Source: Candidatus Saccharimonadota bacterium (lineage in GTDB: Bacteria; Patescibacteriota; Saccharimonadia; Saccharimonadales; Saccharimonadaceae). From it: a stretch of 64,000 nucleotides of DNA. Both the position numbers and the translations under genes were made by a program. The stretch spans positions 33,710 to 97,709 of the forward strand of contig JAEUQU010000001.1 of NCBI GenBank assembly GCA_016789455.1, written 5' to 3'. Shown piece after piece: positions 17,351 through 42,938 of the stretch. Numbering within the stretch: position 1 is the first letter of the stretch; each line of letters begins with the position of its first letter. The notes beneath the pieces are model-generated. The model worked only from the letters and a program-made list of their open reading frames with translations. It made no database searches and was not told the origin of the DNA.

Positions 17351-17381
17351 AAGGCGTACTCATAAGAAATCACAGCCACGT

Positions 17382-17456: not shown

Positions 17457-17515
17457 GGTTGTGGTTTTTTGTTTGCTGAAATTCCCAAGCATTAGCGGTT
17501 TCCGCCAAATTCCCC

Positions 17516-17521
17516 TATACT
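17516..17521 (+). promoter_or_regulatory. -10 box TATACT, 6 nt upstream of ATG 17528
   Basis: TATACT followed by GGCCTT and then ATG. No Shine-Dalgarno, which is consistent with a leaderless mRNA. Confidence 0.35.
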
Positions 17522-17527
17522 GGCCTT

Positions 17528-17995
17528 ATGCTTGAGTCCTGGCTCCAACCTTTTATCTACCTCTGGCAATGGGTCCTGCAGGAACAACCTTGGATGGTGG
17601 CTGCGCTCAGTTCACTGCTGGCGCTGGGCTTTGGGTTCCTGCTCATCGGCACCATTCGCCACCGCCGGATGTGGTGGGCCATCCATAAACAGAATAATCT
17701 TATCCGCAAACTGGCCTGGGAACTGTACCTGAAGCAGATGGTGATGATCGGGCATGTCGACATCGAGGAGCTGCTCTTTTTCTGCCACGATCACGACATC
17801 ACCGATGAAAGCCCGAGCGCCATCGAGCTGTTGCAGGCCGTTTATTATGATTCGACTGATATCATCGGCACGCACCTGCGGGCGGAGGATGCTCGTGTCA
17901 TCATTGAGGAGTATATTTTGCACCGTGAAGAGATTATGGCGTTGGCGTATAAGGATCCGCGGGCTCAGAACGACCAGCCCGCTCCACAGCAATAA
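17528..17995 (+). CDS. hypothetical membrane-anchored protein
   Basis: 155-aa ORF with TM segment WMVAALSSLLALGFGFLLIGTI and ordinary composition. The overlapping ORFs on both strands are shorter and low-complexity. Confidence 0.45.
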   Translation: MLESWLQPFIYLWQWVLQEQPWMVAALSSLLALGFGFLLIGTIRHRRMWWAIHKQNNLIRKLAWELYLKQMVMIGHVDIEELLFFCHDHDITDESPSAIELLQAVYYDSTDIIGTHLRAEDARVIIEEYILHREEIMALAYKDPRAQNDQPAPQQ

Positions 17996-18017
17996 GCCTT
18001 AGCCCAATAGTGCGGGC

Positions 18018-23038: not shown

Positions 23039-23114
23039 CGGGGTGTGGCGCAGTTGGTAGCGCGCGGCGTTCGGGACGCCGAGGTCGTCCGTTCGAGTCG
23101 GATCACCCCGACCA
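23039..23114 (+). tRNA. tRNA-Pro (anticodon CGG)
   Basis: Sequence CGGGGTGTGGCGCAGTTGGTAGCGCGCGGCGTTCGGGACGCCGAGGTCGTCCGTTCGAGTCGGATCACCCCGACCA. The anticodon stem CGGCG/CGCCG is perfect, the loop is TTCGGGA, C1-G72 is present and CCA is encoded. Confidence 0.9.
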
Positions 23115-23207
23115 TGTCTTAGTTTTAGCCCTTTAGCGGCTATTTTTTAGTTATGGCAATGTGATAGTGTTAAAGCATAAGTTATAATTATTTTAAGGAA
23201 TAAACAC

Positions 23208-25811
23208 TTGAAAAACTTAATTCGCACAATACCCGTTTTATTGCTACTGACGCTTTTCTCATCACTCGTCCTCGCAGGACTCAGTAGCCGCCCGGCAGGT
23301 GCATCCGCCACTCATATTCCTTTAAACGTCACCTCGGCACAGTACATCCCAAATAGAATATCCGCCCACAGAGACGGGAGTGTTACGGGCTCATCCTGCA
23401 GCCCATCATCGTATCCTTGGACTTATCTCAAAACTTATGCATCAAACAATCAGATTGTCACAGGTCTTGAAAAGGCCAACACTAGCGATTGGATGGGAGC
23501 CAATTGTAATGACCAAGGCATAGCCACCGGCCACGACAATACAGTTTACATGTACGAAAACCGTTATCTCAATAGCAGCACGGAGCGTCGACTTGCGGCC
23601 TATAAAGATGATGTATTACTTTGGGCGAAATCATTTGTTGGCTGCAACAATAGTAACTCAAACGACTTATCGCAAGCCGAGTTGTACTATCCAACACTTG
23701 GCTTTGACAATACGCTCTATGTCTTTGGCTTCGCGCAGTCAGACTGTACGGACTCCAATAAAAATAATGCACTCTACGCTCTTGATCTTGCCAATGGCGA
23801 TATCGTGTCTCAAGCTCAAGTTTATGCCAAATCGCCAATAAATAGTTCCGACTCAAGTTTAATAGTACCGATGGAAGATGGCGTTGCATTTCTCGACCAT
23901 GAGATAATTTACACTAACGGACAACCCACCACCGATAGAAAATTTATGCGTTATTATGGCTGGCAGGATGGATTGCTTGTCGAAAATACTAATCGAGCCT
24001 ACGACATATCGAATGTAAGCTACAGCGCCAGGCAGTATGTATCACAGCTTGCGGGCGACCCTGAAGGCAATATATATGTACAGATGTATCCTGATTCCCA
24101 GCCTTACAACAACTGCACAGGGAGTACTGAAATTGTTAGGCTTGACCAAAGCCAGAGCAGCCCAGCCCTATCAAGAGTTCCTCTAGACGACTGTAACTTT
24201 ATGTCTACACGTATGGCCATCACGCCCGATAGAGGTGTCGTAGTGCTAGGCGGGGACGGGAGTGGAGCCGGTGCATATGATGATAGGATGATAAAATTTT
24301 CTTCAAGCGGTTCTATTGTTTATGATAAAAACCTCAATAATCTATCGGGTGACGGATTTAACAACCCATTTATCAATAGCTTCCCTGTAGTAGATGCCAA
24401 CGGCACAGTTATTGTCGTATCGGCTGCAGATTCCGCAACTGCATGGCCCATGGATCGCTATCTTATCGTAAGGACATTTGATAATTCTAGTGGTAATCAA
24501 ACCATTATATATAAATCTTCGGACGACCAAATTCTTGATCCAAACGCCCAGGATAAGTTTGCCACCATATCTTACATCGATGTTCAGGATGGCACTGTAT
24601 ACTTTTTGACATGCAAGTCTGATTACGCATATTACTGCAGTGGCACACAAAGCGTTTCGTTATCAAAAGTAAATGACTCTAGTCTTGATGATGCGTACCC
24701 ACGCTCAGAGCTGACAAACTCATCAGATTTTGACGGTGATGGCGTCTCCGTTAACGGCGAAGCTTCTCAGGGTACAAGTGAACACAGAATCGATTCCGAT
24801 AATGACGGGTTGAATGACTTGGTTGAATCAGTATACTATACTCAACGAACTGCGGCCTTTTGCAAAGTCGTCAATAGCACTCCTGCGAACTGTGCCTACC
24901 CCGATCCCATAAAGAAGGATATTTTTATCGAAATAGACTGGCTTTATGATAGCGAGGAGGGTCGATCAACACTCCCCAGCCCCAATCAGCTTTCAAAGAT
25001 TGGAGAAGCCTTTGCTGCCAAAGATATAAAGGTGCATTTTGATATTGGCGACTATACAGGAAATGAAGATGATGAGGTTAGTAGCTCAGTCCAAATTGGA
25101 GACTTTGGCGGCGGGAACGAAGTGCCCTACAGAGCACTGATTCAGTTTGATTCAAGTGAAGATGGCGCTCTCGCCAATGTGCCTGACTTGATCGACTACA
25201 AAAAAGGCAATGAAGATGTTTACAATATTACTTCACAGTTCAACTATGGCAACAGAGGAAACATTTGGCGCTACTTTCTCTCTGCAAAAGTAGTGAACAT
25301 TCCAAGCAACGCCAATGATGATCCTGTGCACGGCAAAGCTGTAGTCGGTAATGACGAAGCTATAATTGCATACGATATGGTAGAAGCAAACACATTAGAC
25401 TCTGCAGATTTTAATAGAATTTTACCTAAAGTCTTTGCGCATGAGCTAGGACACCAGCTATGCCTATCAGGCTTATCGGGCACTTCAAGCAATACATTCT
25501 ACTCTGAACAAATTGAGACATGTGCCTTTGCGGGAGTTGACAGTGATAGTGCTTCAACAAATTATAAAAGTATTATGAACTACGATATTTTAGAAGATAA
25601 TATTTATGAAACTGTCAACGATCCGTTCCCTCATACGGATAGGTTACTCTACCCCTTGCCTGCGTATAGCTTTTCTGAGGGAAATAATGGAAGTGGAGAC
25701 CATGATGATTGGAACAGTGTATTAAATAGCGTAGGGGATTTTGCAAAGGACAAAGACTACTATTATCTCTTACCTCCCATTAACACACCGTGCCGCATGG
25801 AATGTAATTAG
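23208..25811 (+). CDS. large secreted protein with a C-terminal HEXXH zinc-metalloprotease-like domain
   Basis: 867-aa ORF with a TTG start and signal peptide MKNLIRTIPVLLLLTLFSSLVLAGLSSRPAGASA. An Asp-rich Ca-binding-like stretch DFDGDGVSVNGE...DSDNDGLNDLVE is present. VFAHELGHQLCL provides the HEXXH, and KSIMNYD further downstream resembles a metzincin Met-turn. Confidence 0.7.
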   Translation: MKNLIRTIPVLLLLTLFSSLVLAGLSSRPAGASATHIPLNVTSAQYIPNRISAHRDGSVTGSSCSPSSYPWTYLKTYASNNQIVTGLEKANTSDWMGANCNDQGIATGHDNTVYMYENRYLNSSTERRLAAYKDDVLLWAKSFVGCNNSNSNDLSQAELYYPTLGFDNTLYVFGFAQSDCTDSNKNNALYALDLANGDIVSQAQVYAKSPINSSDSSLIVPMEDGVAFLDHEIIYTNGQPTTDRKFMRYYGWQDGLLVENTNRAYDISNVSYSARQYVSQLAGDPEGNIYVQMYPDSQPYNNCTGSTEIVRLDQSQSSPALSRVPLDDCNFMSTRMAITPDRGVVVLGGDGSGAGAYDDRMIKFSSSGSIVYDKNLNNLSGDGFNNPFINSFPVVDANGTVIVVSAADSATAWPMDRYLIVRTFDNSSGNQTIIYKSSDDQILDPNAQDKFATISYIDVQDGTVYFLTCKSDYAYYCSGTQSVSLSKVNDSSLDDAYPRSELTNSSDFDGDGVSVNGEASQGTSEHRIDSDNDGLNDLVESVYYTQRTAAFCKVVNSTPANCAYPDPIKKDIFIEIDWLYDSEEGRSTLPSPNQLSKIGEAFAAKDIKVHFDIGDYTGNEDDEVSSSVQIGDFGGGNEVPYRALIQFDSSEDGALANVPDLIDYKKGNEDVYNITSQFNYGNRGNIWRYFLSAKVVNIPSNANDDPVHGKAVVGNDEAIIAYDMVEANTLDSADFNRILPKVFAHELGHQLCLSGLSGTSSNTFYSEQIETCAFAGVDSDSASTNYKSIMNYDILEDNIYETVNDPFPHTDRLLYPLPAYSFSEGNNGSGDHDDWNSVLNSVGDFAKDKDYYYLLPPINTPCRMECN

Positions 25812-25831
25812 TAATACGGATGCAATAGATT

Positions 25832-26539
25832 ATGATTAGAAAAAGAACCATAGTTTTAGCAAGCTTCGCGCTGGTGATATGCTTAGTAATAGCCGCTATT
25901 TTAGTAAACCGCACAGGCACCAAGGACATGGAGCGACCAATTGATAATTCAAGCGCCGACACTAAAAATCCCAGTGATAACAAAGCGAATAATAAAAATG
26001 TAGAAGAAGTAGATAAGCTTCAAAGCGTTGTGCCAGAGCCACTGCCCGCTAGCTGGACCGAGGTTGCCCCCGAAAGCATGGCCATAAAAATTGCCTATCC
26101 ATCAGAATGGAGCTTTAATGGGGGTCAGCCTCGGCCCTCGACTGACGGCAAAGCTGAAACCCAAACACTATATGTATCTTATCTAGGCTCAGACTCCCAG
26201 CTAATTGACCGCCCTTGTAGGTTGACTGTTCAGACTCAGTCATTCGCGGAAGTTATTAAAATAACAGAGAGTCAGGATACTGACGATGATGGAGTAATCA
26301 CCGATACTCCATACAAGCTTTGGACGGATGTAGTAGAGAAGGATTACTTTACTTATGATGACCGCCAGGCGGTACGCTACCTCTTTGCAAATCGTGTATC
26401 AACGAGCGATGATAAGAAATATAAGATCTTTTACCTAGTAGAAGGCAACTCTAAAACTTACTCTTTGGTCTGTAGTGTGCGAGATGGATTAAACGAAAAA
26501 GAAATTGACAGTTTGTTTAAGCAAATTCACTTGCAGTAA
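25832..26539 (+). CDS. N-anchored hypothetical protein (paralog pair, copy E)
   Basis: 235-aa ORF with TM segment IVLASFALVICLVIAAILV. The segments PASWTEVAPESMAIKIAYPSEWSF, RPCRLTVQTQSFAEVIK and YSLVCSV align with PAGWTDYSNGALKTSLSHPTNWMT, ERCVLEIKNVSFAVSVK and YELSCPI of the next ORF. Confidence 0.55.
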   Translation: MIRKRTIVLASFALVICLVIAAILVNRTGTKDMERPIDNSSADTKNPSDNKANNKNVEEVDKLQSVVPEPLPASWTEVAPESMAIKIAYPSEWSFNGGQPRPSTDGKAETQTLYVSYLGSDSQLIDRPCRLTVQTQSFAEVIKITESQDTDDDGVITDTPYKLWTDVVEKDYFTYDDRQAVRYLFANRVSTSDDKKYKIFYLVEGNSKTYSLVCSVRDGLNEKEIDSLFKQIHLQ

Positions 26540-26663
26540 TTGCGTACATTTACAGAAAACAACATAACTCACAACGATCGGGCTGGCGTCATGAGTGGGA
26601 TTGGCGATTTTTCTAAACATAGAGAGTATTCTCCTGTTACGGGAATGTGCATGAAAGTTTGTT

Positions 26664-27365
26664 ATGAATAAAAAGCAAAGAGTTTTCCTTCTACTTATTG
26701 TTGCGGTGGCTATGCTTGGTATCGTAGCATACCTTACAAATGTTGGTAGTTACAAACCCATTCCATCAGAAAGAAGCAATAAGGGTACTACCGACACTCC
26801 ACCGACAGTGCAAGCAGTAGAAAAGCCTGCGCGTGGCATAAGTAGCGTTGACAGACTATCAAACATTACGAGAGAGCCGACACCAGCGGGCTGGACTGAT
26901 TACAGTAATGGGGCGCTTAAGACTTCACTCTCTCACCCGACGAACTGGATGACCGACAGCGTAGATAATATCTCTCCTACTGGAAAACAGTATAGCTTTG
27001 ACATAATATTAAGCGCCAATCCTAAATCCGAAGTCGAACGATGCGTCCTGGAAATCAAGAACGTATCTTTTGCTGTTTCTGTAAAAAATTTGGAAAGTAC
27101 CGACAAAAATGATCCTGGCACAATTGATCCAAATGCAATGGTAATATGGAGAGACATAAAAGAGCGTGATGATCTTATACTTAACGGAAACACGGCATTT
27201 CGCTACCTCATGAGTCGTAGGGACGCAGCTCGGCAAGAAGCGCAAGTTAGCGTCATCTACATGATCGACTCACAAAATAAGACCTATGAATTATCCTGTC
27301 CTATACAAGGAGAAATTACAGAGCAAGTCGTTGATAAGATTGCCCAGCAAACAATCATAAATTAA
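26664..27365 (+). CDS. N-anchored hypothetical protein (paralog pair, copy F)
   Basis: 233-aa ORF with TM segment VFLLLIVAVAMLGIVAYL, collinear with 25832-26539 (see that entry). Confidence 0.55.
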   Translation: MNKKQRVFLLLIVAVAMLGIVAYLTNVGSYKPIPSERSNKGTTDTPPTVQAVEKPARGISSVDRLSNITREPTPAGWTDYSNGALKTSLSHPTNWMTDSVDNISPTGKQYSFDIILSANPKSEVERCVLEIKNVSFAVSVKNLESTDKNDPGTIDPNAMVIWRDIKERDDLILNGNTAFRYLMSRRDAARQEAQVSVIYMIDSQNKTYELSCPIQGEITEQVVDKIAQQTIIN

Positions 27366-27829
27366 TTGACAATTCGCTTTCTTCGCTGTAGCTCCCCTAC
27401 TACCTGCTCCCCATGATTCAGTGGCGTCACCCTCCCATACACCTTCACAATCCGCCCCTCCGGATTAATAATGAACGTCTTGCGCAGGATGCCTTCCCGC
27501 CCGAACATCTTCTTACCCCACGCGCTATACGCCTCGATGACTTTTCCTTCCGTATCGCTCAATAATGAAAAGTTAATATCGTATTTGGCTTTGAACTTGT
27601 CATGCGTGCTAGGATCGTCTTTAGAGATGCCGACAACTTTGGCACCAAGTGCCGTCAGTTCGTCCCGGGCGTCGCGGAAGGAGCAGGCTTCTACCGTGCA
27701 ACCCGGTGTGTCATCTTTGGGATAGAAATACAAAACGAGCCACGAACCGGCAAAGTCACCCAGGCTGACGGGCGTACCGTTATGGTCTGTTAGTGTAAAA
27801 TCCGGGGCGATTTGCAGTGGCGTATCCAT
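27362..27829 (-). CDS. bcp: thioredoxin-dependent thiol peroxidase (peroxiredoxin Bcp)
   Basis: Active-site motif FYPKDDTPGCTVEACSFRD. The start is set at ATG 27827-27829 (MDTPLQIAPDFTL). Confidence 0.85.
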   Translation of the reverse strand: MDTPLQIAPDFTLTDHNGTPVSLGDFAGSWLVLYFYPKDDTPGCTVEACSFRDARDELTALGAKVVGISKDDPSTHDKFKAKYDINFSLLSDTEGKVIEAYSAWGKKMFGREGILRKTFIINPEGRIVKVYGRVTPLNHGEQVVGELQRRKRIVN

Positions 27830-27836
27830 GGAGTAC

Positions 27837-27845
27837 AGTATAGCA
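27837..27845 (-). promoter_or_regulatory. extended -10 box TGCTATACT, 7 nt upstream of the bcp ATG
   Basis: The minus strand reads TGCTATACT GTACTCC ATG. It overlaps a plus-strand TACAGT (27834-27839) that lies 8 nt upstream of ATG 27848. Confidence 0.45.
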
Positions 27846-27847
27846 GT

Positions 27848-29086
27848 ATGGACATTCAGCAATTGCACACCCGTATCCGCGAAGAAGAACAACGTAACAA
27901 CCGTTTCCTGCACCTCACCCCTAATGAGCCGTATCCGTCGGAGACTGCCCGGGCCTTCTTGGGCTCGCGGCTGAGCGACCGCTATTACATGGGTGCTGGC
28001 GAGGATAACATGGTCGACCTGGGGCCGTTTACCGCCTTGGGCTTCCCTGGCATAGAAACGCTAGTGACCAAGGCAGAGGAAGCCGCCAAGGAAATGCTGG
28101 GCGCCAGCGTGGTCAACCTTGCCTGCCTCTCCGGTGTACACGCCATGATGTGTGCCATCCTCACCACTACCGAGCCGGGCGACGTGGTCATGACCATCCA
28201 CCACGACCATGGCGGGCATTTTGCCACCAAGGGCGTCATTGATAGGATTGGGCGCGGGCACGTCTTTACGCCGGCCTACAACACGGATAACCTTTCGTTT
28301 GACACGGAGGAGCTTGGCAAGGCCTTCAGGGAGTCCGGCGCCAAAGCCTTTTATATGGACGCCTCGTATTACCTGAACCCGCATGACCTGCAGGCCATCC
28401 GTGCCGCCCTGGGCGATGACGCCATCATCATCTACGATGCCAGCCACACCATGGGCCTCATCATGGGGCAGCAGTTTCAGGCACCACTGCGCGAGGGCGC
28501 GGATGTCATCACGGCCAATACGCACAAGACGCTGCCGGGGCCGCAGAAAGGTATGATTGCCTTCCGGGATAAGGCTTTGGGCGCCAAGGCCAATCAGATT
28601 ATCGATGATTGCCTCTACTCCAGCCCGCACACTACCTCGATGATTGCGCTGGCCACCACCATTCTGGAGATGAAGGAGTTTGGGGAGGCGTATGCCCGCC
28701 AGGTCATCGCCAATTCCAATGCGCTAGGCCAGGCCCTGGCTGACCGCGGCTACATGATGCGCAAAGCCAATACCGGCCGCTACTCCGAAAATCATCAGGT
28801 GCACTGGCTGACGGAGGGCGTCGGGGAGTACCGCAAGCTCTACAAGCAGTTCTACGCCAACAACATCACCCTCGCCTTCGACCACCCCGATATTCTGGGC
28901 CAAGGCATCTTTGTACGGCTTGGCACGCAGGAAATCACCCGCCGCGGCATGACCGAAGAAGATATGGAGAAGATTGCCGACTTCCTGGACCGCACCGTCC
29001 GCGGCGAAAAGTTCCCCGACGAGGTGGCGGTCTTTGCAGATTGGTTCCGCAAGGCACATTTCTCGTTCGACACCGTAGAGCAGTAA
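27848..29086 (+). CDS. divergent serine hydroxymethyltransferase-family PLP enzyme
   Basis: The PLP-lysine motif is TANTHKTLPGPQKGMI (canonical THKTLRGPRGG). Also present are HHDHGGHFATKG (canonical HGGHLTHG) and DASHTMGLIMG (canonical DMAHxAGLVA). The N-terminal region LHLTPNEPYPSE departs from the canonical LIASENF. The start is set at ATG 27848. Confidence 0.6.
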   Translation: MDIQQLHTRIREEEQRNNRFLHLTPNEPYPSETARAFLGSRLSDRYYMGAGEDNMVDLGPFTALGFPGIETLVTKAEEAAKEMLGASVVNLACLSGVHAMMCAILTTTEPGDVVMTIHHDHGGHFATKGVIDRIGRGHVFTPAYNTDNLSFDTEELGKAFRESGAKAFYMDASYYLNPHDLQAIRAALGDDAIIIYDASHTMGLIMGQQFQAPLREGADVITANTHKTLPGPQKGMIAFRDKALGAKANQIIDDCLYSSPHTTSMIALATTILEMKEFGEAYARQVIANSNALGQALADRGYMMRKANTGRYSENHQVHWLTEGVGEYRKLYKQFYANNITLAFDHPDILGQGIFVRLGTQEITRRGMTEEDMEKIADFLDRTVRGEKFPDEVAVFADWFRKAHFSFDTVEQ

Positions 29087-34227: not shown

Positions 34228-35160
34228 CTATTGGGGCAACAGCCGGGTCACTACTTCGACGAACGGTATAGAGTAATGGTCAATGCCCGCCGGCGTCTCA
34301 ATTGACGTCTCAAAACCTTTTTCCCGATAATACGCTTCACCCTCTTTTGCGTCAGACAGGGCGTCGTAGCCGTCGGACGCGTTAGCTGCGACATCCTCCT
34401 GGCCGGTATACCACTTCATAGTGAAGGAATTGATGAACTCTTGTGACTGCGCCGCGCCCTGACCGCTATACGGCCGGCCACCGCCGCCAAAGGCGATGGA
34501 ACCGCCGCCACAGAACAGGTCGGAGTGGCCGTGCACCAAAAACGAGGTGATAAATACCGAGCCGCCGGAGTAGCCGATAAGCCAGGCGTTGCTGCGGTTG
34601 ATGTTGTATTTGGGGTAAATTTCATTTTCGAGGAAGTCGCGGACCCATTCGGCATTAGTGCCGCCGTCTTCCCACCAGGTGACCGTGCCGCTATCGGGCG
34701 TGCGGATGGCAATCAGCAGCATTTCGCGCTGCTTGGCCTGCTCGGCGTAGCCCTCCAGTGTGCCCTCGCGCAGGTTGTCAAACTCTTCGGCGCCGTCGCC
34801 GTGGAACTGCAGCATCAGGCCGAGTGGTTTGTCGGTCGGCAGGCCTTGGCCAAAGAGGTGATACTGGGCAGTGCCGGCGCTGCCGGAATAGCTTTGGTCC
34901 GTGGCGTCGGTCAGCGTGCCGCCGGTGCCGTTAGTAGCGCAGCCCTGGGCGACCGGCGGGGCCGCACCCATGAATGACAGTGCTTTGCTGGCTGAGGCCG
35001 ATGGATCGTTTTGTACGCTGGTGCCGTTGGGCGTGGCGTCTTCTGCTTCAATGCTTTTGGTGACGCCTGCGGCATAAGCAAAAGCCAAGATTATACCGGA
35101 TACAAGGACGATGGCCGCCAGCGAGACGGCGATTTGCAGTTTTAGTGTTTTCATCTGCAA
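34228..35160 (-). CDS. secreted esterase (alpha/beta hydrolase, PHB-depolymerase/feruloyl-esterase-like)
   Basis: Signal peptide MQMKTLKLQIAVSLAAIVLVSGIILAFAYAAG and nucleophile elbow LIGYSGGSVF. The overlapping ORFs are judged spurious. Confidence 0.6.
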   Translation of the reverse strand: MQMKTLKLQIAVSLAAIVLVSGIILAFAYAAGVTKSIEAEDATPNGTSVQNDPSASASKALSFMGAAPPVAQGCATNGTGGTLTDATDQSYSGSAGTAQYHLFGQGLPTDKPLGLMLQFHGDGAEEFDNLREGTLEGYAEQAKQREMLLIAIRTPDSGTVTWWEDGGTNAEWVRDFLENEIYPKYNINRSNAWLIGYSGGSVFITSFLVHGHSDLFCGGGSIAFGGGGRPYSGQGAAQSQEFINSFTMKWYTGQEDVAANASDGYDALSDAKEGEAYYREKGFETSIETPAGIDHYSIPFVEVVTRLLPQ

Positions 35161-35240
35161 TTACTATAGCATGGCGGTGTGGTCATGCTCACATTGCCAG
35201 ACTAAGGAAACATGCTATTATATGGCGGTCGTGACCACTT

Positions 35241-35534
35241 GTGCCCGCACGGCACACAAAGCGAAAGGGGCATGCGCCCATGCAAAGAACGACCGTACGT
35301 ATCTGGTGGCGCGCCATGGGGCCCGGAGAACGGGCACTCATCGGACTCGTCGCCTTCACGCTGTTGTCGATCTCCATCTCGCTGATCCTGGCCTGGATGG
35401 GACACCCCTTCGGTGCGCAGTTCACCTCGATGGGCGGGTTCCTTATCTCCTTCGTGGTGGCAGGGCTGTACCTCGAGTACAAGAGGCGACGGCGCACCGG
35501 CGGGTCCGGCGACAACACCAGTTCAGGCGGGTAG
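35241..35534 (+). CDS. possible small two-TM membrane protein
   Basis: 97-aa GC-rich ORF with segments ALIGLVAFTLLSISISLILAW and GGFLISFVVAGLYL and a basic tail RRRRTGGSG. The start is uncertain (an internal ATG lies at 35280). Other frames are open here as well. Confidence 0.3.
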   Translation: MPARHTKRKGHAPMQRTTVRIWWRAMGPGERALIGLVAFTLLSISISLILAWMGHPFGAQFTSMGGFLISFVVAGLYLEYKRRRRTGGSGDNTSSGG

Positions 35535-35535
35535 C

Positions 35536-35608
35536 CTGGCTGGGACGTGACCTAGGGTTAAGTAGGTTGGGAGGGTCCTGGCTGAAGTAGATTTTCTCCC
35601 CTAGGTCG
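35536..35608 (+). terminator. long-range hairpin plus T-run at the GC-to-AT transition (terminator and/or left island boundary)
   Basis: CGTGACCTAGGG (35536-35547) pairs with CCCTAGGTCGCG (35589-35600), including one G-U pair. GATTTTTTAA follows. Confidence 0.35.
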
Positions 35609-35638
35609 CGGATTTTTTAATATGCAATAGATGTATCG

Positions 35639-35644
35639 TATAAT
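35639..35644 (+). promoter_or_regulatory. -10 box TATAAT, 8 nt upstream of the RT ATG
   Basis: TATAAT, then AGCACGCA, then ATG at 35653. No Shine-Dalgarno, which is consistent with a leaderless transcript. Confidence 0.4.
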
Positions 35645-35652
35645 AGCACGCA

Positions 35653-36999
35653 ATGTTTGATGATATAGAGCAAGTTGTTGATAAAAAGTTTTGGCGAGTA
35701 ATTAATGATTTGAGAGTTCATGCAACTAGAAAACAAAGGAAGCCGTTTTTATTGGAGCTGGCGAAAAAGTTAAAGCATCATGAGTACTTTCCTAGCCTGC
35801 CATTGACAGTAAAAGAGGCAGACAAAGGATTTAGCGTAGCCCGCCAAATACCCATATTTAACCTCGAAGACTATAGTGTTTACTATTATTGCGTCCGCAA
35901 ACTGGAGCACGTACTCGCAAAGAACAGGATTAAAGGCACCTACGGCGGATGGTCAATGGGTGGCAAATTAAGAAACTTGGAGGATTTTGAAGATCCGGGC
36001 GATGAATACAGCCTCACATACTCTTACAATCCAGCTGCATGGAGTAAATACTATGGCGATTTTAACGCTAGGCTATACGGAAAAATTAAAGAAATTCAAG
36101 ATTCCAACAACCCACGCCAAGTCGTATTTGAGCTAGACATCGCCAATTACTATGACAATATTCAGCTTTCCATATTGGAGAACAAAATTAGACAAGATGC
36201 CGACTATTCAGAGTCAGGAATTTTAGACCTGCTCATGTATTTCCTCGGCTACAGCAATCGATTAGTAACCCATTACCAGAAAAGAAGCGTGGGAATTCCA
36301 CAAGATGCGTTTGGCGACTGCTCCCGCTTGCTGGCTAACTATTATTTACAAGACTATGACCTATTCATGAACGAACTGACCAAGCAGCATGGCGCCAGTT
36401 ACTTCCGCTACGCTGACGATCAAATTATTTTTGTTCCCAGTGATGCAGTCGGTCATTCAATCATTCAACTTGCCTCGCGAAAACTGGCTCAGATAGGGTT
36501 AAACTTTAACCAACAAAAAGTCGCAAGGCGTACTCTTGATGAGCTTTACACATATCGCTCCTTTGATATTAACGATATTTTTCAAGAACCAAACTCAAAG
36601 AAAGATGCTACAAAAGTGAATGAATTTGCATATAGAGCTTTTGAGGCGATAGATCAAGATGTCAGCTGTTTAAAGAACAGGGGTTATCCACTAATTAAAA
36701 GGCTACTTAATGCTGAGTATAATTTATTATCCCCTACATACAGAGCACGACTAATGGCATACGTTTTTGACAAAGAATTTACCAAAGCTGGAAAAGCGTA
36801 TAATTTTAGAATGGCATATGAAAAGATGTATGAAGACGAAAAGAATGGTTACCTCATTCTATTAAATGATCTTTTGGATAACTGCAGTCATTCTGCATTT
36901 CACTACGAGATATTAACCTTTTACAGACAACTAGGCCTAGATACAGAGAGGCTTGAAAATAGAATAGCTGAACTTAAAAAGGATATTTATTCTATATAA
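35653..36999 (+). CDS. stand-alone reverse transcriptase (prokaryotic RT; retron/Abi/DRT-like, class unassigned)
   Basis: 448-aa ORF. Motif A is VFELDIANYYDNI, motif B GIPQDAFGDCSRLLANYYL, motif C YFRYADDQIIFV (YADD) and motif E IGLNFNQQKV. It has an N-terminal extension of about 150 aa and a helical C-terminal region of about 130 aa with no recognisable extra domain. Confidence 0.85.
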   Translation: MFDDIEQVVDKKFWRVINDLRVHATRKQRKPFLLELAKKLKHHEYFPSLPLTVKEADKGFSVARQIPIFNLEDYSVYYYCVRKLEHVLAKNRIKGTYGGWSMGGKLRNLEDFEDPGDEYSLTYSYNPAAWSKYYGDFNARLYGKIKEIQDSNNPRQVVFELDIANYYDNIQLSILENKIRQDADYSESGILDLLMYFLGYSNRLVTHYQKRSVGIPQDAFGDCSRLLANYYLQDYDLFMNELTKQHGASYFRYADDQIIFVPSDAVGHSIIQLASRKLAQIGLNFNQQKVARRTLDELYTYRSFDINDIFQEPNSKKDATKVNEFAYRAFEAIDQDVSCLKNRGYPLIKRLLNAEYNLLSPTYRARLMAYVFDKEFTKAGKAYNFRMAYEKMYEDEKNGYLILLNDLLDNCSHSAFHYEILTFYRQLGLDTERLENRIAELKKDIYSI

Positions 37000-37061
37000 A
37001 ATATTTTTGTTATTACAGTCAAACTACAAACGGCTAAGATTATATTTTACTTTTTGCAGAG

Positions 37062-37194
37062 TGGGAGAAAGGACTCGATCTTGTTTTGCTCGCTCTACGT
37101 TCGCTTCTGTTTCACTTCAGCTCACCCGCTCGGCCAAGCATTGCATACGGAACGTCCACTGGACGTTCCGCCTATCGGTTCGAGTCTTTTCCCA
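37062..37194. repeat. imperfect inverted repeat enclosing about 100 nt with a perfect internal hairpin; both arms resemble the 3' end of tRNA-Pro(UGG)
   Basis: The left arm TGGGAGAAAGGACTCGA (37062-37078) pairs with the right arm TCGAGTCTTTTCCCA (37180-37194) as 7 bp, a bulge, then 6-7 bp. The internal hairpin is CGGAACGTCC-ACT-GGACGTTCCG (37148-37170). GAAAGGACTCGA (37067-37078) is identical to 42283-42294. GGTTCGAGTC (37177-37186) is identical to the tRNA-Pro(UGG) T-arm in sense orientation. Confidence 0.55.
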
Positions 37195-37202
37195 TGCTCA
37201 AA

Positions 37203-37244
37203 CAAGAAAATAGCTTAGACATGAATGCCTAAGCTATTTTCTTG
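37203..37244 (+). terminator. perfect 16-bp hairpin (putative terminator closing the RT transcription unit)
   Basis: CAAGAAAATAGCTTAG (37203-37218), a 10-nt loop, then CTAAGCTATTTTCTTG (37229-37244). The 3' arm itself supplies a T-rich tract, but there is no separate U-run. Confidence 0.4.
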
Positions 37245-37466
37245 GTCGCGCAAAGGCGAACAAGATTGAACCGGACTTTGCGGGTTTACTGCACTCCTTA
37301 CGCGAGGCATGGGACACAATAGCTTACCGCGAAATGACCGAGCCTATCCTAGTGACCATTGACTCTAACAGTAGTGAGTTCGTAGATAAGAACCCTCTCT
37401 ATGTATATTAGCTATCATCTACCACTGATGTATTAAACCTAATTGCAAGTAACAGGAATCGAAAAA

Positions 37467-37865
37467 ATGAAAGCAAACGATATGCAGAAACAGGCGGGGG
37501 TAAGCCCCAAAGGAACCCTCTCGCCCCTTGCACCACGCCAACAGAGATTTATGGAATACTATCTGAATGCTGACAGCCCCACATTTAGTAACTGCTACAG
37601 TTCGGCCGTGCGTGCAGGGTATTCCGAGCAGACGGCGCGTAATCTAACGCACTTACGACCAGCGTGGTTATCGGAAACTATCGGACAAAATGTAACCTTT
37701 GAGCCAGCGGATTTACTGGCGAAACTCGCACAAATTATTGATGACCGCAACGAGACTACCCATAATAAACTACGCGCAATAGATATGATGATGAAGCATT
37801 ACCATATGTTTGCCCCGACAAGCGTAACAGCCGTACAGCTGAATATTCAGAGTGTATTGGACTAA
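37467..37865 (+). CDS. phage terminase small-subunit-like HTH protein (Terminase_2/P27-type)
   Basis: PRQQRFMEYYLNADSPTFSNCYSSAVRAGYSEQTARN matches the TerS N-terminal pattern (F..EYL...N.T.AA..AGYS.KTA). The start is set at ATG 37467 with AGGAA upstream. The ORF is open from a TTG at 37443. Confidence 0.55.
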   Translation: MKANDMQKQAGVSPKGTLSPLAPRQQRFMEYYLNADSPTFSNCYSSAVRAGYSEQTARNLTHLRPAWLSETIGQNVTFEPADLLAKLAQIIDDRNETTHNKLRAIDMMMKHYHMFAPTSVTAVQLNIQSVLD

Positions 37866-38390
37866 CTAGAACGTGCGACCTTCTTGGCGGAACAGGTCTA
37901 TTACGGATGTTCGCTTTACACCCTGGTTGCTGCATACGTTAGGTATCCGAGGGTTTTTCTTGCTGATAGCTACGGTTTCACGCTCTGATGTAATTACTGT
38001 TAGCCCGCGTGCTTTTCCCAGAGCAACAACGCAAAGGTCGGCATAACTGCCGCGCTGCAAATCGTTATATATGGGGTACTCAGTTACAATAGGCCCCATG
38101 GCAGCCACCTGGTCATCGTCTAGCTCTACGAACATATACTCGTGCTGCTTAGCCCAGGCTTTAAGCGGGTCGTCTTTTTCCTTACCCTTCATTATTTCGT
38201 CGTGAACCGCCATAGGTGCAATAATCTCACCCGTCTCAATCTTCTTTTCGATAATTTCCCATTGTGTTTTAAAGACATCTTTACCATAAGGCTCATCAGG
38301 CCCTAGCTTCCAAAAATTGAAGAACACATTGGTATCAATACAATGCGTAGCTAGATTAGCCAGTAAACTAGAAGTGGCGGGGCGGGTCAT
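37866..38390 (-). CDS. DUF4411-like PIN-fold protein (putative toxin/nuclease partner of ImmA/IrrE)
   Basis: 174 aa. The pattern is CIDTNVFFNFW ... G.IIAPMAVHDEI ... ADLCVVALGKARGLTVITSE ... RIPNVC. It has a 4-nt overlap with the upstream ImmA/IrrE gene. Confidence 0.55.
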   Translation of the reverse strand: MTRPATSSLLANLATHCIDTNVFFNFWKLGPDEPYGKDVFKTQWEIIEKKIETGEIIAPMAVHDEIMKGKEKDDPLKAWAKQHEYMFVELDDDQVAAMGPIVTEYPIYNDLQRGSYADLCVVALGKARGLTVITSERETVAISKKNPRIPNVCSNQGVKRTSVIDLFRQEGRTF

Positions 38391-39535
38391 AATGCAATTC
38401 CACTACCGTTCCCCACCCGAGTTTTAAATTCTTGTAAATTTTTTACCGAAATACCCAACATACGCGACAATGTCCGTGAACCTATCCGACCATCTGCATA
38501 GGCGTCGAAAGCTTCTACTGTAAACCGCTTACTATTGTTAGCGAGTTTATTACGGTAATAATCGCCGCCTTTGCTTTTCTTCTTATGCTCTTCAGGTTTT
38601 TCATAGTCATCGCTATATTCGCCCTGGATTGTTTCGTACTGCTGCTTAGATATGTAGCCCAACGTATGCAGGCGTCGGTAAGCTGCAAGCCTGCTGACAC
38701 CGAATAACTTGCGCAAACGCTTAACTTGTTCACCTGAAGGCATACTGCCTACTAGGACGCCAAGTTCATTGGCTGCTTGACGGAACTTATTTTCAGGCAT
38801 TAGGAATGCGGCCGCGAAGCGATTACAGAGCGCTTCAACGTCGTCTGCATCATCGTGCAAATCACAGATACCACTTTGTTTATGTATAACGTGACAGAGT
38901 TCGTGCAACAGAGAGAAGAGTCGAGGCTGAGGTTCTTCTTTGGTGCTAAGTACAATAATGGCGCGGCTTTTCTTGATGATTGAAAAAGCTCGGACACTCT
39001 TTGTTTCCCAGCCCATCTCTGATATATACAGACCACGCTCAGTTAATAAGTCCTTCCAGAATCGCAGGGGGCCAAAGTCATCCGTAAGGCTTTGTAGTTT
39101 AACCTCGTTAGGCTTCAGACCTTCCCTAAATTGCTGGGCAAATAGTTCAGGGTTTCGGGATAAATCAGCAGTAGGGTTAGGTAATTCTACACCACTCCCA
39201 CTTGCTAACTCTGCGCCTGACTCGATAATATACTCTGCTGCATCCAGCGCGTTGAGCAGGTCAATATCTAAGACTTCTGTCCTGTTATGGCGGGAGCGGT
39301 TATCGTTGCCGTGCTTAGGAGCCTGTTCGGGAACCTGCAATAAAAATATAGTCCAGCGCTTCTTATAGGCTTTAGCAAGTTTTTCTAGTGTTACCATATC
39401 GATACTACTATCTTGCTGGTCATATTGCTCAAGTTCATCAACAGCAATACCCGTATCACGGCTCAGGCGCTCAATATCGAAACTTCTATTGAGTCGCAAA
39501 CTACGAAATACAGCCGCTTTTACCTTGATTTCCAT
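38387..39535 (-). CDS. Xre-type HTH fused to an ImmA/IrrE-family zinc metallopeptidase
   Basis: 382 aa. The N-terminal region is HTH-like (FRSLRLNRSFDIERLSRDTGIAVDELEQYD). The HEXXH motif is in LLHELCHVIHK, followed by FAAAFLMPE, which is typical of the COG2856/DUF955 domain. Confidence 0.75.
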   Translation of the reverse strand: MEIKVKAAVFRSLRLNRSFDIERLSRDTGIAVDELEQYDQQDSSIDMVTLEKLAKAYKKRWTIFLLQVPEQAPKHGNDNRSRHNRTEVLDIDLLNALDAAEYIIESGAELASGSGVELPNPTADLSRNPELFAQQFREGLKPNEVKLQSLTDDFGPLRFWKDLLTERGLYISEMGWETKSVRAFSIIKKSRAIIVLSTKEEPQPRLFSLLHELCHVIHKQSGICDLHDDADDVEALCNRFAAAFLMPENKFRQAANELGVLVGSMPSGEQVKRLRKLFGVSRLAAYRRLHTLGYISKQQYETIQGEYSDDYEKPEEHKKKSKGGDYYRNKLANNSKRFTVEAFDAYADGRIGSRTLSRMLGISVKNLQEFKTRVGNGSGIAL

Positions 39536-39593
39536 ACCCTAATTGTATTGCAAGCAACCGAGAGTCCCAAACAGACGCTATCTGCTATGTGTC

Positions 39594-40304
39594 CTAGTTT
39601 TGCTTTGCAGTCTGCCCATTCTCAACTTTATATCGAAGGTGGAGATATGAGCTGCTAAGAGTTTGAGCGCTTTGCAATGTTAGTGGCTTAAGCAGTTTCA
39701 AATCATCGTCCGTTGCAAGCGACTTGCCGCCAATAAGCGTTGCCGTGTCCTTGCCGCCCACGAGCAATGGAGCAACTACCAAAGAGACAAAATCAATAAG
39801 CCCGCTCCGTGCAAGTTCGGCATTTAGCTCACTGCCGGACTGGATAGTCATTTTTTCAATACCTTTTGCCTTTAATTTTGCAAATAGGTCGGCAAAATCT
39901 ATATCGTCATCGTAAGCTATTAGTTCAAGATTGGGGTCGCTCAAGCCTGCGGCAGGATGCAATTTGTTGGTCGTAACAATATATAGTTTATTTGTCCGCT
40001 TCAAAAGGTTCAGGACTCCGCGCTCGGTCAAGTGCGGCTTGCTATCGATAACCACGAAGTCTACGGGGATTTTTTCAATCTCTGTTTTGTCGTCATTCCA
40101 TCCTACCTTTGCCAATACACGCCCCGTATTAAGTGAACAGAGGTCAGTTTCTTGCTCTAAATCGTAATACTGCTGCAAACCCTCTTTTACGCCATTAACT
40201 CCTTGTAAGTCCTTATCAAAATCACGGTCATCGCTGGAACCTGTTGATATTTTGCCATCAAGGGACATAAGCATAAAAAGAGTTGTTATAGGTCTATCAT
40301 TCAT
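39594..40304 (-). CDS. RibD C-terminal-domain / dihydrofolate-reductase-like protein
   Basis: 236 aa. The pattern is TLFMLMSLDGKISTG ... SGSELNAELARSGLIDFVSLVVAPLLVGG ... LHLRYKV, typical of the RibD_C reductase fold. Confidence 0.6.
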   Translation of the reverse strand: MNDRPITTLFMLMSLDGKISTGSSDDRDFDKDLQGVNGVKEGLQQYYDLEQETDLCSLNTGRVLAKVGWNDDKTEIEKIPVDFVVIDSKPHLTERGVLNLLKRTNKLYIVTTNKLHPAAGLSDPNLELIAYDDDIDFADLFAKLKAKGIEKMTIQSGSELNAELARSGLIDFVSLVVAPLLVGGKDTATLIGGKSLATDDDLKLLKPLTLQSAQTLSSSYLHLRYKVENGQTAKQN

Positions 40305-40699
40305 AGCGGCAATTATAGCAGCTTCCGGTAAGTAAACACCGGGTTAGTGTTTATGCTTTACAATATTTCGTTGCTCTTGTATACCCCGCTTGTTACACTA
40401 TGTGCAGTAGACGCTATACGCGAAAAAAGTTTTCATCAACCGCAGTCCGCTTGAAGACAAGTGTGTAACCCGCCTCCAACGTGAGCCGGACGGGAACGGA
40501 CAGGAAGGGTCACTATGACGCTTTGGCAAACTTTTCGCGTACAAAACAAAAACCAATCATAACAGATAGAGCCAAAATGCTCATTGAGCTAGTTGTAATA
40601 CTGCAAAGGATTGACTTAAGTAGTCCGCTGGCTAAACTAAACGCAACCACGATAAGTGATAATAATGGTGGCCGCATCCTCCTATAACAGGGGTGAAAA

Positions 40700-40708
40700 T
40701 GGTATAAT
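40700..40708 (+). promoter_or_regulatory. extended -10 box TGGTATAAT, 8 nt upstream of the recombinase ATG
   Basis: TGGTATAAT, then ATACTCAG, then ATG at 40717, with no Shine-Dalgarno. Confidence 0.45.
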
Positions 40709-40716
40709 ATACTCAG

Positions 40717-42366
40717 ATGCAAGACGAGCCTCAATTAGATATGACTCAACTCAGATACGCCCTTTATGTGCGTAAATCTACTGATGATAAAGAGCGCCAG
40801 CAGCGCTCTGTCGATGACCAAATAGCCGAATGCGAAGACCTGGCAGCCAAACTTGGCGTGAAGCTCGCAAAGCCTTATTACAGGGATGACGGTTCAGCAA
40901 AGATACCTAACAACCCAAAACGCAACCGCTTTTACGATTTATTGGCAGACTTAGAGGCGGGCAAAGTGGATGGCATTATGGCGTGGCACCCTGACCGACT
41001 GGCGCGAAATATGCAAGACAGCGGCCTGATATTCGGGCTATTAGACAATCGACACATCAAAGACCTCCGGTTTGTCACACACTACTTTACCAACGATGCA
41101 AGTGGGCGAATGCTCTTGGGCATTCAATTTACACTCTCTACTTACTACTCGGCTAACTTATCGCAGAATGTAAAGCGTGGCCACCGGCGCGGATTGATGG
41201 AGGGCAAATCGTCAGGTGCGGCCAAGCACGGTTATGTGCGTACCGAGGAAGGTATTTATGTGCCCGACGGCAAGAACTATGAATGGGTTGTTGAGGCATG
41301 GCAACTACGCAAAGACGGCGTAGGACTGCGCGAAATTGCTGAGTACCTAAACGAGCAAGGTTACGGCCGAAAAATTAAAAGCAAAAAGTCGAAGAAATAT
41401 GGCCAAACCGTGAAGATGACGTACCAAATCCTGAGCGAAATGTTTAAGGACTCTTTCTACTACGGCTTGCTGAGCCAGACCAATAAAACCGTAGACCTTT
41501 GTGAAGCGTACGACTTTCAGCCAGCAGTCAGCAAGGATGAATGGGATGAAGTGCAGCGGCTCAGCAGAGCGCTGAGGATACCTTTGGTAGATAACCGACG
41601 TAAAACATTCTATCCGCTACGCGGTCTTGTTAAATGTGCGCTGTGTGAGCACACGATGATACCGGCCGCATCTAAATCGCGGGCGGGTACGCGCTACTTA
41701 TACTTCCGTTGCGCAAATGAGGACTGCACGCGAGCCAAAAAGTCTATTAGAGCCAACGTCATATTCAGTTACATATATGATTTGCTTAAAGGCGGCCTGA
41801 ACTTTACTGAAAAAGATTACCAAACATACCGAGATGGCTTGGTGGCCGAAGCCGACAATGAACGACTACAAATCAAGACTGAGTTAAACAGCAAGCAAGG
41901 TGCGCTAAAAGCAACAAAGCGGCGCATCGACGAGCTGAGCAAGAAGATTATAAATTACGATAAAGAAAGCCGTATATGGCAGGTCAATGACGAGCAGCTA
42001 ACCACTCTCGTAAGTGATGAAGCCGACTTGAAGAAGCAAATCGCCGAACTCAAAGCTTACGAAGTAGACCCTGAGCGCGACGTGCTAAGCATTGAGCAAT
42101 TTTTAAACCTAGCAAAAGACGTTGGTCGTAAGGTGGAAGCGGCCGACACGGTGGCAAAAGACCACCTTGTGCAGTTAATCTTTTTAAACCTAGTCGTAGA
42201 CGAAGAAAAAGTAGTGTCTTATATCTTAAAAGAGCCGTTCAAAACGGCTCTTGAAAGTAAGGTTGTCTTAAATGGTCGGGGTGAAAGGACTCGAACCTTC
42301 GGCCTCGCGGTCCCAAACCGCGCGCGCTACCAACTGCGCCACACCCCGGACTTTTATATCTATTGA
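40717..42366 (+). CDS. large serine recombinase (resolvase domain + recombinase domain + zinc ribbon + coiled coil)
   Basis: YALYVRKSTDDKERQQRSVDDQ carries the catalytic Ser context. Also present are WHPDRLARN, a zinc ribbon CALCEHTM...FRCANEDC and a long coiled coil. The last roughly 30 codons (42273-42366) are antisense to tRNA-Pro(UGG). Confidence 0.85.
   Translation: MQDEPQLDMTQLRYALYVRKSTDDKERQQRSVDDQIAECEDLAAKLGVKLAKPYYRDDGSAKIPNNPKRNRFYDLLADLEAGKVDGIMAWHPDRLARNMQDSGLIFGLLDNRHIKDLRFVTHYFTNDASGRMLLGIQFTLSTYYSANLSQNVKRGHRRGLMEGKSSGAAKHGYVRTEEGIYVPDGKNYEWVVEAWQLRKDGVGLREIAEYLNEQGYGRKIKSKKSKKYGQTVKMTYQILSEMFKDSFYYGLLSQTNKTVDLCEAYDFQPAVSKDEWDEVQRLSRALRIPLVDNRRKTFYPLRGLVKCALCEHTMIPAASKSRAGTRYLYFRCANEDCTRAKKSIRANVIFSYIYDLLKGGLNFTEKDYQTYRDGLVAEADNERLQIKTELNSKQGALKATKRRIDELSKKIINYDKESRIWQVNDEQLTTLVSDEADLKKQIAELKAYEVDPERDVLSIEQFLNLAKDVGRKVEAADTVAKDHLVQLIFLNLVVDEEKVVSYILKEPFKTALESKVVLNGRGERTRTFGLAVPNRARYQLRHTPDFYIY
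42273..42348 (-). tRNA. tRNA-Pro (anticodon UGG)
   Basis: The minus-strand read is CGGGGTGTGGCGCAGTTGGTAGCGCGCGCGGTTTGGGACCGCGAGGCCGAAGGTTCGAGTCCTTTCACCCCGACCA. The anticodon stem is CGCGG/CCGCG, the loop TTTGGGA and the T arm GAAGG/TTCGAGT/CCTTT. CCA is encoded. Confidence 0.9.
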
Positions 42367-42455
42367 TATACTCAATTGTTTATATCATAGGAGACGCGAG
42401 AATACCAGAGGTGGGGGATTTCACGAAGATTTAATATGAGTGTGCAATAGTGAGA

Positions 42456-42938
42456 CTAGCCGCTGATGCGCTGATAGCCGTCGTCTTCTATCTCGCGTTG
42501 GCGGACCTGCTGCATATAGGCGCTCATCTGCTGGGCGAATTGTTCGACGGTCTGGAAGCGGTTACGCAGATCAGCCATCTGCTGTGCCGTGTAGTCAGCC
42601 ATCTGGGCGCCGCGCTGGGCGCCGACCACAGCCTGCTGCACTTGCTGCATCTGTTGTTGTAGCGCCTGGATCTGCTGCTGCAAGCCCTGTACCTGCTGTT
42701 GCATCTGCTGGGTCTGTTGTTGCAGTTCCTGAACGTTCTGGTGCGTGCTGTCGACACGCGGCTTGGCCTCTTCGACGTGCTGTCGGACACGCTGGACATC
42801 ATCGGTATCGCGCGACATGTTGGCAACCTGGGTACGCAGCTCCTGCAAGCTGTTACGGATATCGCTGAGCGTGTTTTTGACCGGGTTTGTGCTGTCGTTG
42901 ACGATTCGTTGGACGTCGTTGTAGTTCAATTCTGCCAT
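42456..42938 (-). CDS. glutamine-rich coiled-coil protein (hypothetical)
   Basis: 160-aa ORF with a central heptad-like run QNVQELQQQTQQMQQQVQGLQQQIQALQQQMQQVQQAV. It lies immediately downstream of rny on the same strand. Confidence 0.55.
   Translation of the reverse strand: MAELNYNDVQRIVNDSTNPVKNTLSDIRNSLQELRTQVANMSRDTDDVQRVRQHVEEAKPRVDSTHQNVQELQQQTQQMQQQVQGLQQQIQALQQQMQQVQQAVVGAQRGAQMADYTAQQMADLRNRFQTVEQFAQQMSAYMQQVRQREIEDDGYQRISG

Follow-up and report, generated by a model that had tools for sequence, protein, structure and literature searches.

A stand-alone reverse transcriptase (RT) gene in a Saccharibacteria genome encodes what is, judged by its sequence, a new member of UG13b, a published and already catalogued RT group with an existing detection model. 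The gene lies in a 64,000-nucleotide stretch of contig JAEUQU010000001.1 of Candidatus Saccharimonadota (hereafter the window, in whose coordinates all positions are given), where an intact, ATG-started open reading frame (ORF) of 448 aa occupies 35653..36999 of the plus strand. We lean towards reading it as a self-contained Class 1 UG13b cassette whose enzyme likely synthesises single-stranded DNA (ssDNA) without a template, primed on the protein itself, and which would cause abortive infection when a phage infects the cell. The family identity, the domain build, the lack of a partner gene or non-coding RNA (ncRNA) conserved among relatives, and the context of defence islands and restriction-modification (RM) genes are all observed. 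The term defence-type, used for this protein in an initial annotation made from the sequence alone, is for UG13b as a whole still a prediction.

Assignment to UG13b

The PADLOC model for UG13b (RT_UG13b, PDLC03750, profile length 430) matches residues 2-443 of the protein over profile positions 3-429 (E 6.3e-122, 405.7 bits). The runner-up models, UG9_large (78 bits) and UG13a (74 bits), follow at about 1e-22, and secondary matches that span the fingers are to UG21, UG19, UG9 and Drt8/UG7, all of them Class 1 groups; the Abi models are not among the top matches. The initial annotation had placed the protein among the orphan, single-protein RTs of the retron, Abi and DRT (UG) universe, and this is borne out. 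Its further proposal of a candidate novel RT does not survive, because over its full length the protein belongs to a group already in the literature.

The group goes back to Mestre et al. (2022; PMC9226505), who split UG13 in two and delimited UG13b by phylogeny and protein length. According to the text of that paper, inspection of individual loci led to a defence prediction for seven groups, UG13b among them, and it does not figure among the systems described as tested. The text also names nine Class 2 groups, UG13 not being one of them, gives Class 3 proteins as longer than 1000 aa and leaves UG36 and UG37 unclassified, so UG13b falls into Class 1 by elimination, from this text and not from the published tree. 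A literature search for DRT11-14 (DRT, defence-associated RT) returned nothing for UG13; the newest number found was DRT11, which corresponds to UG5.

We retrieved 363 homologues. The family is of modest size: a search of 1.84 billion representatives gave 221 clusters (50% identity, E <= 1e-30). Its full length is conserved across many phyla. The clade of the window protein forms a single 50%-identity cluster, and its nearest public relative is 73% identical. Patescibacteria, or Candidate Phyla Radiation (CPR) bacteria, account for 19 of the 80 nearest genomic loci, a count skewed by the CPR origin of the query. Relatives are nearly absent from viral contigs (two loci in 2.9 million). The window protein resembles the rest of the group in length class (~430-460 aa), in being a single ORF with no fused known domains, and in its defence-island context, which was the ground for the published defence prediction; apart from its setting in a Saccharibacteria genome, no difference emerged among the features compared. 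A CPR-like host had been considered from the outset, and an identical flanking protein is indeed annotated as Candidatus Saccharibacteria.

In an alignment of 33 family members, 47 columns are invariant over the full length of the protein, and the window protein keeps all 47 residues. Its RT motifs are likewise intact and invariant across the 33 members, in agreement with the initial annotation, which had described the palm motifs including YADD as intact. Motif 1 reads Y45-x-P...K58-G-x-x-x-x-R64-x-x-P67 and motif 2 is D73; the catalytic residues are kept in motif A (D162) and YADD (Y253-A-D-D256), with motif B (G214-I-P-Q-D218) between them and a further motif, G282-L-N-x-N-Q-x-K289, downstream. 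Pfam RVT_1 alone matches, over residues 145-291. An N-terminal extension of about 150 aa had been proposed, but RVT_1 fails to align RT motifs 1 and 2, which begin at residue ~45-57, and so the supposed extension is mostly the fingers subdomain; only about 40 residues precede the fingers. The helical C-terminal region of about 130 aa proposed alongside it corresponds to the last 145 aa, a generic helical-repeat domain delimited in Table 1. Public gene sets begin the protein at Met34, giving 415 aa. The close homologues are all 449 aa long and share the N-terminus MFDD, which favours a start at 35653 over the public call. The gene also falls in the lowest-GC 1-kb bin of the window (36001-37000; 0.379 vs ~0.58 in the host), consistent with its earlier description as the most AT-rich gene of the window.

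Table 1. Features of the UG13b RT cassette and its borders in the window
Feature	Position	Strand	Basis
Inverted repeat GACCTAGGG...CCCTAGGTC, then T-run	35549..35607	+	Sequence reading
Sigma-70-type promoter TTAATA-16-TATAAT, 10/12 matches	35617..35644	+	Promoter search
UG13b RT gene, 448 aa, intact	35653..36999	+	PADLOC match, 363 homologues, 47 invariant columns, AlphaFold2 model
RT fingers and palm, residues ~40-300	35770..36552	+	Alignment and AlphaFold2 model
RT1 DKGFSVARQIP, residues 57-67	35821-35853	+	33-member alignment
Flexible acidic loop, residues 104-124	35962..36024	+	pLDDT <50; length varies in the family
Motif A ELDIANYYD, residues 160-168	36130-36156	+	33-member alignment
Motif B; GIPQD is residues 214-218	36292-36360	+	33-member alignment
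YADD, residues 253-256	36409-36420	+	33-member alignment
GLNFNQQKV, residues 282-290	36496-36522	+	33-member alignment
All-helical C-terminal repeat domain, residues 304-447, nine or ten helices	36562..36993	+	AlphaFold2 models
tRNA-Pro(TGG) T-arm/3'-end-like fragment, 15/16 identical to 42279-42294	37063..37078	-	0/300 shuffles reach the score
Two hairpins: 10-bp stem 37149-37169; perfect 15-bp stem 37204-37218/37229-37243	37149..37243		Repeat search and folding
Second tRNA-Pro(TGG) T-arm-like fragment, 14/15 identical, inverted relative to the first	37177..37191	+	1/300 shuffles

Structure and closest known enzymes

An AlphaFold2 model built on the family alignment (predicted local distance difference test score, pLDDT, 86; predicted template modelling score, pTM, 0.84) shows a fingers-palm RT followed by an all-helical C-terminal domain. 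Residues 104-124 are disordered in the model; this acidic loop ends at an invariant Ser124, and the near-invariant Tyr134 and Tyr142 come next. Modelled alone, the C-terminal domain is again all-helical (pLDDT 89). No thumb/maturase, nuclease or other recognisable effector domain is present in the protein, and no cas genes or repeats of a diversity-generating retroelement were found at the locus, as had been noted before.

We compared the whole chain with the PDB by Foldseek, using query-normalised template modelling scores (TM-scores). The best matches are DRT4/UG15 (9vdv, 9l9s and 9vdo; TM-score 0.57-0.58, root-mean-square deviation (rmsd) 6-7 Å) and DRT6 (9wy8; 0.58, 6.5 Å). AbiA (0.50), AbiK and Abi-P2 (0.45-0.49), the group II intron RT (~0.46) and DRT2 and DRT9 (0.39-0.44) score lower, and the RT of diversity-generating retroelements appears only as a low-ranking fold match. 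A PDB profile search also matched UG15 (E 4.5e-5); the aligned stretch, query residues 248-417, takes in YADD and reaches well into the helical domain. The C-terminal domain alone had no match among PDB sequences, and in Foldseek it retrieved only generic helical-repeat proteins (designed repeats, TPR-like, Puf and 14-3-3) at E >= 0.13. The models suggest a helical-repeat, alphaRep-like domain that lacks an enzymatic fold, as would fit the alphaRep domain of Class 1 proteins.

DRT4 (UG15) and DRT6 (UG12) thus resemble the window protein most as whole chains, and they share its layout of an RT core followed by a helical domain, encoded by a single gene with no ncRNA (PMC12783706). Identity to them is about 14%, and they exceed the window protein in length by 50-100 aa. 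What is known of these two enzymes (assembly into hexamers, synthesis of random ssDNA, triggering by a protein of the ssDNA-binding type) may apply to it by analogy at most, and neither the priming Tyr125 of DRT4 nor Tyr44 of AbiK could be mapped onto it. In AbiK, Abi-P2 and AbiA (PMC9508834, PMC11077055), as in the window protein, RT-like fingers and palm are joined to a helical domain in place of the thumb, and a flexible loop near the fingers could hold a priming residue. However, structural similarity to these enzymes is lower, the helical domain of the window protein is much shorter, and it lacks the HEPN domain of AbiA. Class 2 DRTs (DRT2, DRT9 and DRT10) and retrons are likewise small RT-only proteins in defence islands with a detectably similar RT core, but UG13b differs from them in that its relatives show no conserved adjacent ncRNA.

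Several other types of RT were considered and rejected. A group II intron RT/maturase, which the initial annotation had also discounted, is ruled out by the NCBIfam model TIGR04416 (71 bits, over the RT core only, vs a cut-off of 300), by the lack of an intron RNA in Rfam and by an rmsd of ~15 Å to the known structure. A retron is ruled out by the St85 model (35 bits vs 235), by the lack of any Rfam retron match and by the lack of a conserved flanking non-coding region. A Class 2 DRT of the DRT2/DRT9/DRT10 type is ruled out by the missing conserved ncRNA in relatives and by the Drt2 model (57 bits vs 390); Drt3a also scores under its cut-off (43 bits vs 200). A diversity-generating retroelement is ruled out because there is no template/variable repeat pair. 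Direct repeats longer than 22 nt are absent within 34500-42500, and the only longer repeat family is a 21-nt tandem array beyond the tRNA, at 42633-42744.

Genomic context of UG13b relatives

We examined 80 genomic loci from many phyla; neighbour clustering covered 147 immediate neighbours of 83 loci, and intergenic gaps were measured at 77. In 20 of the 80 loci, the RT is part of a type I RM operon, HsdM-HsdS-RT-HsdR, whose genes are spaced by -8 to +13 nt. We found no paper describing this embedding for UG13b. The RT follows hsdS and precedes hsdR (or comes downstream of hsdM/S), its stop and start codons overlap those of its neighbours, and several clades of the family show this pattern; the RM-embedded loci include, in our numbering, L003-L009, L014, L017, L020, L024, L030, L038, L039, L049, L057, L077 and others, the RT lying mostly at ~6001-7350 of the locus. 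RM subunits also lead the neighbour families: among the 147 neighbours are 13 HsdS, 6 N6 methylases, 5-6 HsdR-type helicases, 4 Eco57I-type proteins and 2 Mrr. As no other neighbour family recurs, UG13b has no dedicated effector or partner. The association with RM is dispersed over the family tree and includes the sister clade of the window clade.

Close homologues (64-73% identical) occupy different defence neighbourhoods. One adjoins a type IIG RM enzyme and GmrSD, and another an NgoFVII-type endonuclease with a C5 methylase. A third (L087; 68% identical, on a Patescibacteria-type contig) lies next to a ThsB-TIR gene. The UG13b RT of that locus is 4.7 kb downstream of a second RT gene of 373 aa, in a multi-RT defence island (features at 205-1326 and 2975-3421 of L087).

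Gaps are shorter than 100 nt on both sides of the RT in 17 of 77 loci. In the 73%-identical homologue, a convergent gene overlaps the RT stop codon, and the other close homologues leave 1-190 nt to the next gene (1-86 nt in L081 and L087).

Borders of the RT cassette

The -10 box of the predicted promoter ends 8 nt upstream of the RT ATG and there is no Shine-Dalgarno sequence; the RT mRNA is therefore predicted to be leaderless or nearly so, as the initial annotation had it. The same layout occurs in four of five close homologues (L001, L081, L085 and L087, the exception being L002), where a -35 box of the TTGA type is paired with TATAAT or TACAAT placed 8-10 nt ahead of the ATG. Since these four come from unrelated contexts, the leaderless-type promoter is conserved and moves along with the RT gene.

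Upstream of the promoter, the inverted repeat with its T-run is probably the terminator of the preceding host gene (35241-35534). GC drops from ~0.58 to 0.38 immediately after it, and the repeat forms the left border of the low-GC RT cassette without belonging to the RT system. A search of this left border (35400-35660) for a second tRNA fragment gave nothing above chance.

The 443-nt region that follows the RT stop codon (37000-37442) requires closer attention, as the initial annotation had combined the RT and a structured RNA downstream of it into one system. The folding is real: the region folds better than shuffled sequences on both the plus strand (z -4.3) and the minus strand (z -4.9), and the structured element and strong hairpin described earlier correspond to the two hairpins of Table 1. 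However, good folding of both strands is what would be expected of inverted repeats in DNA, and not of a strand-specific RNA. In blastn searches of this region and of 35535-35652 against all 88 fetched loci, only contigs identical to the window matched. An Rfam scan at E <= 1 returned only the tRNA-Pro and a chance miRNA-like match at the hairpin. Given that the element is found only in identical contigs and that neighbours in the family are close or overlapping with short gaps, a flanking ncRNA is not a feature of UG13b, and the element most likely lies outside the RT system.

What the region does contain is two fragments resembling the T-arm of tRNA-Pro(TGG), inverted relative to one another, the first of which is oriented like the tRNA gene (42273-42348). 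The T-arm pattern has three matches in the window where 0.14 are expected; the other tRNA-Pro gene (CGG, 23039-23114) has a different T-arm. Because the element is absent from relatives and carries these two fragments, it is more likely an attachment-site or junction scar of the neighbouring serine-recombinase island than a template of the RT.

Proposed mechanism and alternatives

By analogy, the chemistry of the polymerase, its priming residue, its trigger and the phenotype may be pictured as follows. The promoter and ORF would have entered a Saccharibacteria genome as a cassette, beside the serine-recombinase island at tRNA-Pro or on its margin. The UG13b protein would oligomerise and synthesise ssDNA without a nucleic-acid template, starting on one of its own hydroxyl side chains, for which Ser124, Tyr134 and Tyr142 are conjectural candidates. 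Infection would make this synthesis toxic, for example if a phage ssDNA-binding protein shielded the product from host exonucleases, with abortive infection as the outcome.

Untemplated, protein-primed synthesis is suggested because all the characterised enzymes with the same build (AbiK, Abi-P2, AbiA, DRT4/UG15, DRT6/UG12 and DRT3b/UG8) work in this way. AbiK and Abi-P2 prime covalently on their own Tyr44 and Tyr61, respectively; DRT4 (on Tyr125), AbiA and DRT6 likewise make untemplated DNA primed covalently on a residue of the enzyme, and DRT3b (on Tyr666) makes poly-dCdA. DRT4 and DRT6 make their DNA constitutively, and exonucleases of the host remove it until a phage ssDNA-binding protein protects it and the cell dies. 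AbiK, Abi-P2 and DRT4 carry their priming residues in different loops. Tyr45, which we considered as a special priming residue, was rejected, as it is the ordinary Y-x-P of RT motif 0/1.

Several points count against a Class 1 enzyme of this kind. The best whole-chain TM-scores (~0.58) are moderate, and homology of the C-terminal domain to the solved alphaRep domains of DRT4 and AbiK is not demonstrated, since the domain alone retrieves generic repeats only. The Class 1 placement was itself reached by elimination, and our full-text searches found no later paper mentioning UG13 and no experiments on any UG13b member. Class 1 products are not uniform, as the defined poly-dCdA of DRT3b illustrates, and "random ssDNA" may therefore be wrong in detail. 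The priming residue is conjectural, and it cannot be mapped by homology because the site differs in every solved enzyme. Finally, members are frequently embedded in type I RM operons, which would also fit a different, RM-coupled logic.

This last point leads to the idea that UG13b, or part of the family, is a guard or accessory of RM, firing when a phage anti-restriction protein disables the type I system, with the window copy having become detached from its operon. There is a model for such an arrangement in PrrC, which is kept latent by EcoprrI. The operons in a quarter of the loci with their minimal gaps, HsdS as the commonest neighbour, and the scatter of the association over the tree (sister clade included, with close homologues next to other RM systems) all speak for it. 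Yet at about three quarters of the loci, and throughout the window clade, the RT adjoins no type I RM gene, and no hsd genes occur in the 30-42 kb stretch of the window that we examined. Type I RM operons are also hot spots for inserted defence genes, so adjacency may merely mark a preferred insertion site. On balance, we think a guard role unlikely. We are a little more open, if still doubtful, towards UG13b being a mechanistically distinct Class 1 enzyme, for instance one that primes on Ser124, makes a defined product or backs up a disabled type I restriction system, which would then give a first view of synthesis-based immunity in CPR bacteria.

Two further explanations seem much harder to sustain. 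The RT might have nothing to do with defence: it could be selfish or in decay, left over for example from a group II intron, a retron or a diversity-generating retroelement, or it could help to maintain the island without benefit to the host. In favour are the foreign, AT-rich character of the gene and its place at an island junction, together with group II intron RTs ranking among the top sequence and fold matches of its core; UG13b also has no known phenotype. Such a reading is difficult to reconcile with an intact ORF that keeps every family-invariant residue, or with full-length conservation across many phyla; the locus has no intron RNA, maturase/endonuclease domain or template/variable repeat pair, TIGR04416 stays far below its cut-off, and the gene is single-copy, found in varied defence contexts and almost missing from viral contigs. 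We consider this very improbable. Even harder to credit is an RNA-templated system, in which the RT would copy a structured RNA from 37000-37442 in the manner of DRT2/DRT9/DRT10, DRT3 or a rearranged retron. The region does fold better than its shuffles, with long perfect stems, its length is unusual for an intergenic region, and the ncRNA of DRT3 also sits downstream of the RT. But its minus strand folds even better, it contains the two T-arm fragments, it has no Rfam match and it is confined to contigs identical to the window. Relatives leave little room for such an element, with a convergent gene over the RT stop codon in the 73%-identical homologue, next genes 1-86 nt away in L081 and L087, short gaps on both sides at 17 family loci, and overlapping neighbours where the RT is embedded in an operon. 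The retron, Drt2 and Drt3 models are also far under their curated cut-offs.

The neighbouring island

The neighbours of the RT are as the initial annotation described them: a TerS-like N-terminus, DUF4411/PIN and ImmA/IrrE-helix-turn-helix (HTH) proteins, a RibD_C protein, a large serine recombinase and tRNA-Pro. On the simplest reading of the sequence, a serine-recombinase element spans ~37079-42278. The RT cassette (38-39% GC vs 45-48% in the rest of the island) would then, if the downstream element is a junction scar, lie just outside it, having inserted separately or being left over from an earlier insertion. The earlier placement of the RT at the distal edge of a tRNA-Pro island is ambiguous, as a tRNA-Pro T-arm repeat separates it from the rest of the island. 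For the flanking host protein (34228-35160), we found no orthologue closer than 46% identity besides that of an identical metagenome-assembled genome.

The serine recombinase ORF (40717-42366, plus strand) runs across the tRNA-Pro(TGG) gene (42273-42348, minus strand), and its last ~31 codons are antisense to the tRNA. Because it reads through the entire tRNA gene, the C-terminus of the recombinase would change on excision. It is unusual for a serine-recombinase element to integrate at a tRNA gene.

About 0.9 kb from the RT lies a gene pair (37866-39535, minus strand) in which a 382-aa protein with ImmA/IrrE (Peptidase_M78) and an N-terminal HTH matches the RosmerTA antitoxin RmrA (E 4.5e-23). 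The gene shares 4 nt with that of a 174-aa DUF4411/PIN-like protein, which matches none of the PADLOC RmrT models. This is probably a RosmerTA-like toxin-antitoxin defence pair. The 140-aa protein encoded at 37443-37865 (plus strand) matches only the N-terminal ~40 residues of a small terminase (Terminase_2), the DNA-binding part. A recombinase island of ~5 kb with a Terminase_2-like N-terminus and no other phage genes hints at a minimal phage-satellite-like element carrying defence cargo.

The window has other low-GC (0.41-0.49) islands, at 23039-28000 and 11000-18000, each adjoining tRNA genes: tRNA-Pro(CGG) at 23039 and tRNA-Arg/tRNA-Gly at 17182-17456, respectively. Their proteins include one of 867 aa with no Pfam match, others of 233-235 aa with none, and a GDSL-lipase-like protein of 1070 aa; no defence-related Pfam matches were found in these islands. 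Just beyond the tRNA-Pro(TGG) gene, the tandem array at 42633-42744 is a CTGCTGCA-rich repeat with a 21-nt period in four or more copies. It lies within the coding frame of the minus-strand gene that follows, where it probably specifies a repetitive protein segment rich in Gln and Ala.

Significance

Current concepts are unchanged by these findings. Their value lies in a compact, intact cassette of promoter and ORF, 1.4 kb in length, for the first experimental study of UG13b. Two comparative results sharpen such a study: no neighbouring gene or ncRNA is needed, and about one quarter of the members are found in type I RM operons. For the organisms themselves, putative defence genes of the RT type occur on small mobile cassettes in Saccharibacteria and in other CPR genomes.

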